Part shown: one piece after another, positions 34,505 to 35,722 of the stretch
Numbering within the stretch: position 1 is the first letter of the stretch
How the letters are laid out: each line of letters opens with the position of its first letter
Origin: Nitrospirota bacterium
GTDB taxonomy: Bacteria > Nitrospinota_A > UBA7883 > JACRGQ01
Reading direction: 5' to 3'
DNA: 64,000 bases
Assembly: GCA_024275955.1 (NCBI GenBank)
Contig: JAJRYD010000004.1
Span: 69,346-133,345, forward strand
Made by a program: the position numbers and the translations under genes
The notes under the pieces: generated by a model
What the model saw: the letters and a program-made list of their open reading frames with translations, nothing else
The model's database searches: none
What the model was told of the DNA's origin: nothing

Positions 34505-35722
34505 TTATATGGCAAACTCAAGCATAAGGATCATGTAGTTGTCATGGCCTCTACCGTCGCCGCTGTAAGCGGAGTACTCGGCAATAAGCTCAACATTCTG
34601 ACGAACATTCCACCAGCCACCAATTGAAGTGGTAGTCGAATCAGCAGCTGTAGCACCGTTCTCGTTGTTGATCTGCAACAAGGCCGCTTTGATACCTGTA
34701 TGAGCAAACCCAAGCGACGCGCCCAAGCTAAACGCGTCCTCAGAGTCGGTAGTAGAAGCGTTGTAGATGGTGTTTTTTGGGTTGGTCTGGTAAGTACCAG
34801 TAATATCAAGGGTCATACCATTAATGTCTTCAATCTGTGCCTGAAAGTCGATAGCGGTTGACTCTGTTTTGTACTCTTTCAGAGCAGTAACAGTACCGCC
34901 GCACTTGGTTCCGCACTTGGTCTTACCGGAAGTACCCTGGTAACCGATCATAAGGTCTACGCCGTCCCATACCTTAGGGGTAATGATAAAGCGAACGTAG
35001 GTTGAAAGGTCGAAGTTGGTATCGATGCTCTTTTGAGCAGGACCCCAAAGAGTAAAGTTGGCAAAGAAAAGCTCGTTGCCGCCGAATACGCCGATACCAG
35101 AAGCAGTACCCTGCGCAGGACCGTCGATAGCGAACGCCGCGATAGTTTCAGTTCTGTTTTCCCATCCACGGTTGAACCTGTGCGCGTTGTTCATAAGCTC
35201 CATGCCGTAGGAAGCTCCGCCAGCGTCAGTAGAGAATACTGTCGCGCCGCCCTGGAAACCGCCAAAGTCTTTCGAGAATATAAACTTGTTGGTTGCATCT
35301 TTGTTTGCGCCTTCGGTAAGGAAACCAAAGTTATCGCCTACACGACCGCCGATAAACAGCGCCGCCTCATCAGGCAGGTCAAGCTGACCACGGTCGGTCC
35401 CAACTGCTACTTCACCAGCGGCAGGCTTGTCTTTAGTAGAAGTCTTTTTGTAGCGCCATTTGTAGACCATTGATACATTAGCAACTGCTGGAATCGAAAG
35501 ACCATCATCTTCGATGAGATCTTGTGATGCCTGAGTAAAACCGCCGATCTTGAATTCGCGGCCGAAAGCGTTAAGCTTTGGAAGATGCTGGAAGTGGCAA
35601 GCGTCGCAACCCACGCCAACCTGACGTGCGAAAGACGGAATCGCTTCTGCGCTTTTAGGAGCAACGAAAAGCCCAACAACGGCAACCACTACCGCCAACA
35701 TTAAAGAACTAAACCGTTTCAT
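34505..35722 (-). CDS. Cyc2-like fused monoheme cytochrome c / outer-membrane beta-barrel porin (candidate extracellular electron-transfer protein)
   Basis: Signal peptide (…KSAEA), then a single CxxCH (GCDACH) ~10 residues later. The rest is Gly/Thr/Ser-rich with alternating hydrophobic beta-strand pattern. 405 aa. Confidence 0.55.
   Translation of the reverse strand: MKRFSSLMLAVVVAVVGLFVAPKSAEAIPSFARQVGVGCDACHFQHLPKLNAFGREFKIGGFTQASQDLIEDDGLSIPAVANVSMVYKWRYKKTSTKDKPAAGEVAVGTDRGQLDLPDEAALFIGGRVGDNFGFLTEGANKDATNKFIFSKDFGGFQGGATVFSTDAGGASYGMELMNNAHRFNRGWENRTETIAAFAIDGPAQGTASGIGVFGGNELFFANFTLWGPAQKSIDTNFDLSTYVRFIITPKVWDGVDLMIGYQGTSGKTKCGTKCGGTVTALKEYKTESTAIDFQAQIEDINGMTLDITGTYQTNPKNTIYNASTTDSEDAFSLGASLGFAHTGIKAALLQINNENGATAADSTTTSIGGWWNVRQNVELIAEYSAYSGDGRGHDNYMILMLEFAI

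Follow-up and report, generated by a model that had tools for sequence, protein, structure and literature searches.

The cyc2-like gene and its expression signals

A 64,000-nucleotide stretch of contig JAJRYD010000004.1 (GenBank assembly GCA_024275955.1, positions 69,346 to 133,345 of the forward strand), which is referred to as the window in the following, carries a cyc2-like gene at 34505..35722 on the (-) strand. According to the list of open reading frames (ORFs) and the translation, the gene starts with an ATG codon and encodes, stop codon included, the 405-aa precursor of a fused monoheme cytochrome-porin, which by its sequence almost certainly belongs to the Cyc2 family (Keffer et al. 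2021; McAllister et al. 2020). The host can be placed with the help of ThrS (29642-31375), the best named relatives of which, with 57-77% identity, are exclusively from Nitrospinota, so that the window is assigned to a genome of this phylum.

Translation signals and putative transcription signals are found on both sides of the gene. A Shine-Dalgarno sequence AGGAGG (35730..35735, (-) strand) is located 7 nt 5' of the ATG, and a sigma-70-like promoter TTGACA-17-TATTAT (35882..35910, (-) strand) with 11 of 12 matching positions and a TG extension lies about 160 nt 5' of the start codon. The promoter is a pattern match from a consensus scan, and in total the region has no more such sites than expected from shuffled sequences. 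These promoter-like sites are part of an AT-rich upstream region (35723..36316) with a GC content of 29.5% compared to 47.3% for the window. Behind the gene, an intrinsic terminator (34434..34474, (-) strand) was recognized in a terminator scan and in the sequence itself; its stem-loop (34474-34444) has a 13-bp stem with nine G-C pairs and a 5-nt loop and is followed by a T-run. The effective number of codons (Nc) of the cyc2-like gene is 43.3, the lowest value among the 49 genes of the window. Promoter, ribosome-binding site, terminator and Nc together suggest, as indirect support, that the gene is highly expressed.

The preliminary description of this locus had listed a 405-aa ORF with a signal peptide ending in AEA, an AT-rich upstream stretch of about 600 bp (35723-36316), and a strong terminator, and all three were recovered by translation, inspection, base composition, and terminator scan. 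Its suggestion of a highly expressed unit is supported only indirectly, by the signals named above. Regulation by iron via a Fur box in the promoter region was considered and rejected, because the best match (11 of 19 positions) is below the shuffle mode of 12. With a GC content of 49.8% compared to 47.3% for the window, the gene shows no composition-based signal of horizontal transfer.

Signal peptide and heme signature

Residues 1-27 of the precursor (MKRFSSLMLAVVVAVVGLFVAPKSAEA; 35642..35722, (-) strand) were recognized by inspection as a Sec signal peptide, with K2 and R3 as basic start, a hydrophobic core from residue 7 to 20, and A-E-A at positions -3 to -1. Cleavage is predicted after A27 in front of IPSF. 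The alanine at position -1 is invariant in 76 homologs, and the predicted signal peptides of relatives are 23-40 residues long.

Cyc2 proteins can be recognized by a signal peptide, a single N-terminal CxxCH, characteristic motifs, a 16-stranded porin resembling OprO/OprP, and a minimum length of 365 aa (PMC8406198). The motifs have been defined as AxPxFAR[Q/K][T/Y] before the CxxCH and PxL four residues after it, the first of which has been called unique to Cyc2 (Keffer et al. mBio 2021, PMC8406198). In the window protein, this signature extends over residues 27-50 (A-I-P-S-F-A-R-Q-V-GVG-CDACH-FQHL-P-K-L; 35573..35644, (-) strand). The first motif is matched by A27-I-P-S-F-A-R-Q34, whereas position 35 is V and not T/Y. 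As 46 of 215 homologs have V at this position, next to 127 with T and 34 with M, V can be regarded as a common family variant. PxL follows four residues past the CxxCH (H43-FQHL-P48-K-L50), and the 405 aa of the precursor are above the minimum of at least 365 aa, which is the length filter of FeGenie.

The predicted heme c attachment site C39-D-A-C42-H43 (35594..35608, (-) strand) is invariant in homologs. It corresponds to residues 39-43 of the precursor and to residues 12-16 of the mature chain, as had been described before with a distance of about 10 residues, and it is the sole CxxCH in the 64 kb when all six frames are searched in segments of 60 aa or more between stop codons. C39, C42, and H43 do not vary in an alignment of 31 homologs or in one of 76 homologs. 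In the former, the invariant N-terminal cluster consists of A27, P29, F31, A32, R33, Q34, C39, C42, H43, Q45, N51, G54, R55, and F57. The pattern is also found in the 76-sequence set, which includes proteobacterial and Chlorobium homologs; here, A27, P29, F31, A32, R33, Q34, C39, C42, H43, and P48 are conserved to 100% and L50 to 97%. All 235 homologs with a length of at least 365 aa contain exactly one CxxCH, which argues against its presence by chance, and the strict motif A.P.FA[RK][QK]x4CxxCHx4Px[LIVM] is present in 195 of them. The spacing between AxPxFARQ and CxxCH is the same as in the proteins from Ferrigenium KS, Sideroxydans, Chlorobium N1, Ralstonia, and Caballeronia, and the register of the complete signature is shared with Ferrigenium KS, Sideroxydans, Chlorobium N1, and Leptothrix.

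Homologs and placement within the Cyc2 family

A word-indexed search returned 176 homologs, the best non-self match being 50% identical. The named homologs among them are all annotated as hypothetical protein and originate from metagenome-assembled genomes (MAGs) of Nitrospinota/Nitrospinae or Deltaproteobacteria. An exhaustive phmmer search led to 1545 cluster representatives with E<=1e-3, 99 of them with E<=1e-30, and a scan in which each GTDB species was represented by a single genome led to 572 confirmed relatives. The best 80 of these 572 comprise many MAGs as well as Ferrigenium straubiae KS, Chlorobium sp. N1, Gallionella, Sideroxydans, and Leptothrix ochracea. Over an aligned length of about 385 residues, the window protein is 41-50% identical to proteins from Nitrospinota/Nitrospinales MAGs, which are its nearest database relatives, 34.7% to that of Ferrigenium straubiae KS, 35.1% to that of Chlorobium sp. 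N1, about 33% to those of Sideroxydans, and 31.6% to that of Leptothrix ochracea. Published identities are 25-53% within Cluster 1 of Cyc2 and 15-23% between Cluster 1 and the other clusters (Keffer Fig. S7, PMC8406198). The 31-35% identity to Cyc2 from iron oxidizers thus falls into the range within Cluster 1 and lies above the range between clusters.

A profile hidden Markov model (HMM) was built from 15 Cyc2 sequences of iron-oxidizer lineages only (Gallionellaceae, Ferrigenium KS, Sideroxydans, Leptothrix, and Chlorobium N1). With this profile, the window protein scored 280.5 bits over residues 6-389, compared to 67 bits for Cyc2-like proteins of Ralstonia and Caballeronia. In a neighbor-joining tree calculated without bootstraps, the window protein belongs to a Nitrospinota clade, which is the sister of a group formed by Gallionellaceae, Chlorobium, Leptothrix, and homologs from sulfur oxidizers, and the megaplasmid proteins of Ralstonia and Caballeronia are found on a long outgroup branch. 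The tree was calculated without references from Zetaproteobacteria, A. ferrooxidans, or Leptospirillum. The assignment to Cluster 1 or to its immediate sister is accordingly proxy-based, with homologs from iron-oxidizer lineages and Cyc2-like megaplasmid genes standing in for characterized Cyc2.

Tandem or closely spaced cyc2 paralogs were observed in Gallionella acididurans and in two other Gallionellaceae or betaproteobacterial MAGs (loci L045 at 4367 and 5998, L056 at 4340 and 5953, and L060 at 5932 and 9584). The second copies are more divergent, with 28% identity to the window protein.

The predicted porin barrel

The region following the heme segment, residues ~69-405 (34508..35518, (-) strand), is predicted to form a porin beta-barrel. 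An AlphaFold2 model made with the 31-sequence alignment has a mean predicted local distance difference test (pLDDT) score of 80 and a predicted template modeling score (pTM) of 0.79, with values mostly between 80 and 95 in the barrel. Residues 17-48 including the heme segment, which was modeled without cofactor, have a pLDDT below 50. Secondary structure assignment with DSSP resulted in a short split strand at residues 69-78 followed by 16 long strands between residues 82 and 404. Foldseek agrees with a porin fold, and its matches include OprO (4rjw) and OprP (2o4v), which are also the structural homologs reported for Cyc2 of strain PV-1 (PMC8406198). The mature protein contains 12.4% G, 10.3% A, 9.0% T, and 5.6% S.

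Between predicted strands 5 and 6, residues 166-206 (35105..35227, (-) strand) are assigned by DSSP to a long internal loop that contains short helices. This loop is the best-conserved region of the porin half, with T165, G169, E175, R185, and E188 conserved to 86-96% in the 76 sequences. Judging from strand order and not from coordinates, it may take the position of the constriction loop L3 of general porins. R127, E137, R244, D292, and Q294 are conserved charged barrel residues and candidates for contacts to heme propionates or Fe2+. A second cysteine pair, C270/C274 (KTKCGTKCGG; window 34901-34915, (-) strand), is located in a low-confidence surface loop. Many members of the Nitrospinota-type clade likewise have two cysteines in this loop, which are absent in the proteins from Gallionellaceae, Chlorobium, and Leptothrix; they may form a clade-specific loop disulfide.

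The family assignment has to be weighed against two other readings. The gene could encode an ordinary general diffusion porin, the CxxCH of which is not used for heme attachment. The only match in a curated library, Pfam Porin_4 (PF13609), which is also the sole Pfam match, is just over the threshold (28.9 bits compared to a gathering cut-off of 27) and covers residues 248-395 only, and the structural neighbors are all cofactor-free porins. However, conservation is highest at the CxxCH and some ten residues flanking it, which are invariant in 76 sequences from several phyla, and each of the 235 full-length homologs has its one CxxCH. By comparison, the porin part is poorly conserved. This N-terminal conservation corresponds to the published behavior of Cyc2 (PMC8406198), and the Ccm machinery is present, which makes a plain porin very improbable. 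Despite the common fold, the conserved heme segment sets the protein apart from ordinary porins.

According to the second reading, the protein would be a monoheme cytochrome of the periplasm, soluble and not embedded in a membrane, with a long C-terminal domain rich in beta structure. This reading has nothing in its favor besides the signal peptide and the CxxCH and is hardly conceivable. It is contradicted by the C-terminal hydrophobic strand, which matches the beta-signal-like ends of homologs, and by the lack of similarity to soluble cytochromes in PDB sequences, Pfam, and NCBIfam. A search of PDB sequences with the protein gave nothing below E 0.1, and thus no Cyc2 relative with a solved structure, and NCBIfam gave only a meaningless match of 13.9 bits. 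The conservation pattern and the predicted barrel effectively exclude both readings. The Cyc2-like cytochrome-porin proposed in the preliminary description is therefore supported by signature, full-length homology, and predicted barrel: a beta-barrel is predicted by AlphaFold2/DSSP and fold searches, and the best homologs are neither soluble cytochromes nor heme-less porins, since the heme motif is present in the full-length homologs without exception (235 of 235).

Genomic context

Upstream of the cyc2-like gene, ccmF (37062-39035) and ccmE (39041-39475) are encoded on the (-) strand (37062..39475 in total) and were identified by the Pfam domains CcmF_C, Cytochrom_C_asm, and CcmE. Both belong to System I of cytochrome c maturation, so that this route of heme attachment is available. 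Contrary to the earlier statement that cyc2 is two genes away from ccmF/ccmE, ccmF is the very next gene upstream, followed by ccmE. Genes for Ccm proteins are needed for the attachment of any c-type heme and are not specific to cyc2. No ccm homolog was found beside cyc2 in any of 79 related loci or in the annotated contexts of two Nitrospinota relatives, in both of which cyc2 sits between unrelated housekeeping genes. A functional linkage of cyc2 to ccmF/ccmE was rejected because the adjacency is not kept in relatives; it is regarded as coincidental and carries no weight.

The 1.34-kb spacer between ccmF and cyc2 contains no credible ORF, and no Rfam family reached its gathering threshold in the whole window. 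A hidden gene or RNA in the spacer was rejected for these reasons. The spacer largely consists of the AT-rich promoter region and two copies of a dispersed intergenic element of about 130 nt. Copies of this element are located at 31476-31612, 33523-33659, 36315-~36450, and 36762-36898, all in the same orientation. They are bounded by terminal inverted repeats of about 15 nt (GGGGCTGTTkCCrAA ... TTCGGCAACAGCCCC), and additional matches to the terminal repeat are found at 1072-1087 and 27011-27026, which amounts to six in the window compared to an expectation of 0.05. The element folds as a long hairpin (z -2.8), is absent in all 85 related loci, and resembles a REPIN or a miniature inverted-repeat transposable element (MITE).

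Directly downstream of cyc2, a REP-associated (IS200-like, Y1) transposase-like gene is located at 33802-34300 on the (-) strand (Pfam Y1_Tnp, 25 bits). In the window, it is split into the overlapping frames 34055-34300 and 33802-34191, which indicates an assembly error, a pseudogene, or a frameshift. In three Nitrospinales-type MAGs with otherwise different neighbors, cyc2 is accompanied by an intact homolog with 45% identity (L002 at ~7628-7723, L003 at ~7901-8158, and L004 at 7748-8236). The Y1 transposase-like protein may be the mobilizing enzyme of the ~130-nt element.

The surrounding genes have housekeeping functions (sua5, thrS, mgsA, lpxA/fabZ/lpxD, trpE, truA, uvrA, uppP, lpxB, purA, hisS, serA, ligA, dapB, and rho). 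A cluster for flagellar motor and switch proteins (21077-25336, (+) strand) with motA, two OmpA/MotB-type genes, fliL, fliM, and fliN points to a motile organism. With the thresholds applied, Pfam gave no match for four sizeable ORFs, namely 28076-29611 ((+), 511 aa), 43849-45660 ((-), 603 aa), 18430-19614 ((+), 394 aa), and 60830-61840 ((-), 336 aa). Between ccmE and lpxA, which are 1.2 kb apart, a 72-aa ORF (40220-40438, (-) strand) matches only the first third of Pfam MIP (43.5 bits, profile positions 8-76 of 222), NPA motif included. No continuation was found downstream, and the ORF looks like the remnant of a truncated aquaporin.

Proposed function

The favored explanation, which is considered fairly probable as a whole, is that a Nitrospinota bacterium produces a cytochrome-porin of the Cyc2 family from this gene and that the protein works according to the published Cyc2 model. 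Membership of the Cyc2 family points to Fe(II) oxidation and extracellular electron transfer. In this model, the precursor would be exported via the Sec system, after which the signal peptide would be cleaved, so that the mature protein begins at I28. System I (Ccm), with ccmE and ccmF adjoining, would attach one heme c to C39 and C42, with H43 as axial ligand. The remaining ~340 residues would fold as a 16-stranded OprP-like barrel in the outer membrane, and the heme segment of about 40 residues would be placed at or in the periplasmic mouth of this barrel. Dissolved Fe2+ would then enter the pore and, by analogy to Cyc2 of Mariprofundus PV-1, be oxidized at the heme. The electron would be passed on to soluble periplasmic carriers and from there to a terminal oxidase or reductase, while insoluble Fe(III) would stay outside the cell. 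Heme attachment, outer-membrane location, Fe(II) oxidation, and the downstream electron path are presumed for the window protein.

Biochemical support for the model comes from other organisms. Cyc2 of strain PV-1 oxidizes Fe(II) in vitro and has a midpoint potential (Em) of 208 mV (PMC8406198), a Thermodesulfovibrionia Cyc2 produced in E. coli is likewise active in Fe(II) oxidation (PMC13647500), and Fe(II) is also oxidized by Cyc2 of A. ferrooxidans and Cyt572 of Leptospirillum. By analogy, an intrinsic Fe(II)-oxidizing activity is probable for the window protein. Whether this activity has a physiological, energy-relevant role in this organism is judged with slightly more doubt than belief.

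Several points weigh against the favored explanation. Nitrospinota are known as nitrite oxidizers and not as iron oxidizers. The 64 kb encode no other c-type cytochrome (cyc1-like), high-potential iron-sulfur protein (HiPIP), cupredoxin, or terminal oxidase, and with neither partner carriers nor an oxidase, the pathway context is missing in the window. The electron-transfer partners could be encoded elsewhere in the genome, and a stand-alone cyc2 is common in neutrophiles. The comparison included no reference sequence of Cyc2 from PV-1, Cyc2 from A. ferrooxidans, or Cyt572, and the cluster placement was made by proxies. Within the protein, the last position of the first signature motif is V instead of T/Y, and the low pLDDT of the heme segment means that its position relative to the pore is not fixed by the model. 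No conserved methionine or second histidine that could serve as sixth heme ligand was found in the 76-sequence alignment, so this ligand is not evident from the sequence. Close homologs occur in Thiodiazotropha and the symbionts of Escarpia and Lamellibrachia, which are sulfur oxidizers, as well as in Thiocystis violacea and Methylophilaceae, and none of these hosts is an established iron oxidizer. Finally, according to Keffer et al., further functions of Cyc2 are possible.

Some of these points lead to the main rival explanation, according to which the protein is a genuine Cyc2 heme-porin, but with a role other than energy-conserving Fe(II) oxidation in this Nitrospinota organism. Fe(II) might be oxidized outside the cell as a protection against its toxicity, electrons might be exchanged with another extracellular or periplasmic donor or acceptor such as reduced sulfur or manganese species, humics, or a partner cell, or electron flow might be directed outward. 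Such a role would agree with the homologs of 33-36% identity in sulfur-oxidizing symbionts, purple sulfur bacteria, and methylotrophs, with the window being devoid of partner electron carriers, and with the lack of a conserved neighborhood that would tie the gene to a respiratory module in Nitrospinota relatives. It would also agree with the additional functions explicitly left open by Keffer et al. and with the treatment of cyc2-containing Nitrospinaceae/UBA8639 MAGs as nitrite oxidizers with only 'potential' iron oxidases (PMC11995701). On the other hand, every biochemically tested Cyc2 so far oxidizes Fe(II), and a bulk catabolic protein would account for the strong expression signals and the codon bias better than an accessory protein would. 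In addition, the protein probably belongs in or next to Cluster 1, for which Keffer et al. deem the iron-oxidation function most generalizable. This rival is therefore considered rather unlikely, and a protein working according to the published Cyc2 model is kept as the preferred reading.

The occurrence of Cyc2 in Nitrospinota MAGs has already been reported, and the window protein is a fairly divergent further case with a closest relative of about 50% identity. It reveals no new mechanism and no new protein architecture. The most far-reaching reading, which is put forward tentatively, is that in a lineage of Nitrospinota, a phylum regarded as dedicated to nitrite oxidation, dissolved Fe(II) is a source of energy or reducing power by means of a highly expressed Cyc2, and that this Cyc2 represents a phylum-specific clade branching next to Cluster 1 with an extra cysteine pair in a surface loop. 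If this is true, part of the Nitrospinota would be facultative or dedicated iron oxidizers, and the Nitrospinota clade would be informative on the origin of the neutrophilic Cyc2 cluster. As a marker gene for neutrophilic microbial iron oxidation, Cyc2 is the main candidate. As no Pfam or NCBIfam model recognizes the protein as Cyc2 and its named relatives carry the annotation given above, it is correct recognition that lets this Nitrospinota genome be scored for iron-oxidation potential. With this gene, the scattered reports on cyc2 in lineages of nitrite oxidizers gain a well-supported case that is apparently highly expressed, and the question arises whether some Nitrospinota oxidize iron.

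Comparison with known systems

The closest known counterparts are the Cluster 1 Cyc2 proteins of neutrophilic iron oxidizers, namely Mariprofundus ferrooxydans PV-1, Gallionellaceae, Chlorobium, and Leptothrix ochracea, although no sequence from Zetaproteobacteria was included in this comparison. The window protein has the same size and architecture, consisting of a signal peptide, a monoheme segment of about 40 residues, and a predicted 16-stranded OprP-like barrel, and the N-terminal register AxPxFARQ-x4-CxxCH-xQxx-PxLNxFG is identical. The gene is also stand-alone, as is common for Cluster 1. Differences are its position in a separate Nitrospinota clade, which is sister to and not nested in the Gallionellaceae/Chlorobium group, the V in place of T/Y after FARQ, the clade-restricted C270/C274 pair, and a host phylum known for nitrite and not for iron oxidation.

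Within this phylum, Cyc2 homologs of Nitrospinota have been found in metagenomes of hydrothermal chimneys and were placed in Cluster I (PMC9769843), and cyc2-like genes have been described for Nitrospinaceae/UBA8639 MAGs from subsea-tunnel biofilms (PMC11995701). These genes share the phylum with the window protein, and the Cluster I assignment of those from the chimneys (PMC9769843) agrees with the proxy-based one of the window protein. With only about 50% identity to its closest relative, the window protein constitutes a distinct lineage-level variant among Nitrospinota Cyc2.

The plan of a fused monoheme-porin is also shared with Cyc2 and Cyt572 of acidophiles and with proteins annotated as 'cytochrome C' on megaplasmids of Ralstonia, Caballeronia, and Ideonella, a group that has the motif A-x-P-x-F-A-R-Q...CxxCH...PxL...FGR in common with the window protein. 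The megaplasmid proteins, however, align with the window protein over the N-terminal ~110-135 residues only, with an identity of about 31%, and in two plasmid proteins PxL follows three residues past the CxxCH, compared to four in the window protein. In A. ferrooxidans, the gene order is cyc2-cyc1-cup-cox-rus, and nothing comparable flanks the window gene. On the megaplasmids, the cyc2-like genes are followed by a gene for a cyc1-like c-type cytochrome, and in Caballeronia a HiPIP gene precedes the cyc2-like gene; none of these flanks the window gene. The distant Cyc2-like genes in question lie within 1424-4441 of locus L083 (plasmid pSBC1_3 of Caballeronia sp. SBC1) and within 2474-4558 of locus L084 (a plasmid of Ideonella dechloratans). 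The cytochrome gene directly following each of them codes for about 210 aa, and the HiPIP gene of Caballeronia is located upstream. Both represent a cyc2-cyc1-type module in soil or wastewater Burkholderiales that are not known as iron oxidizers. The signal peptide and the motif of the Caballeronia gene, the latter beginning at about 2426, seem to be lost with the annotated start at 2558.

OprP/OprO and the general 16-stranded porins of the Pfam Porin_4 superfamily resemble the window protein in the long loop between strands 5 and 6, but are devoid of a heme segment and have a sequence identity of only 7-12% to it. The conduits MtrCAB, MtoAB, and PioAB likewise reside in the outer membrane and couple extracellular iron redox chemistry to periplasmic carriers. 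In these systems, a 26-stranded barrel is threaded by a separate decaheme cytochrome (PMC8406198). Compared to MtrB, MtoB, and PioB, the window protein has 16 predicted strands and one fused heme, and no multiheme ORF is encoded in the window. With a 16-stranded barrel and a single covalently fused heme, dissolved Fe2+ entering the pore would thus be the expected substrate.

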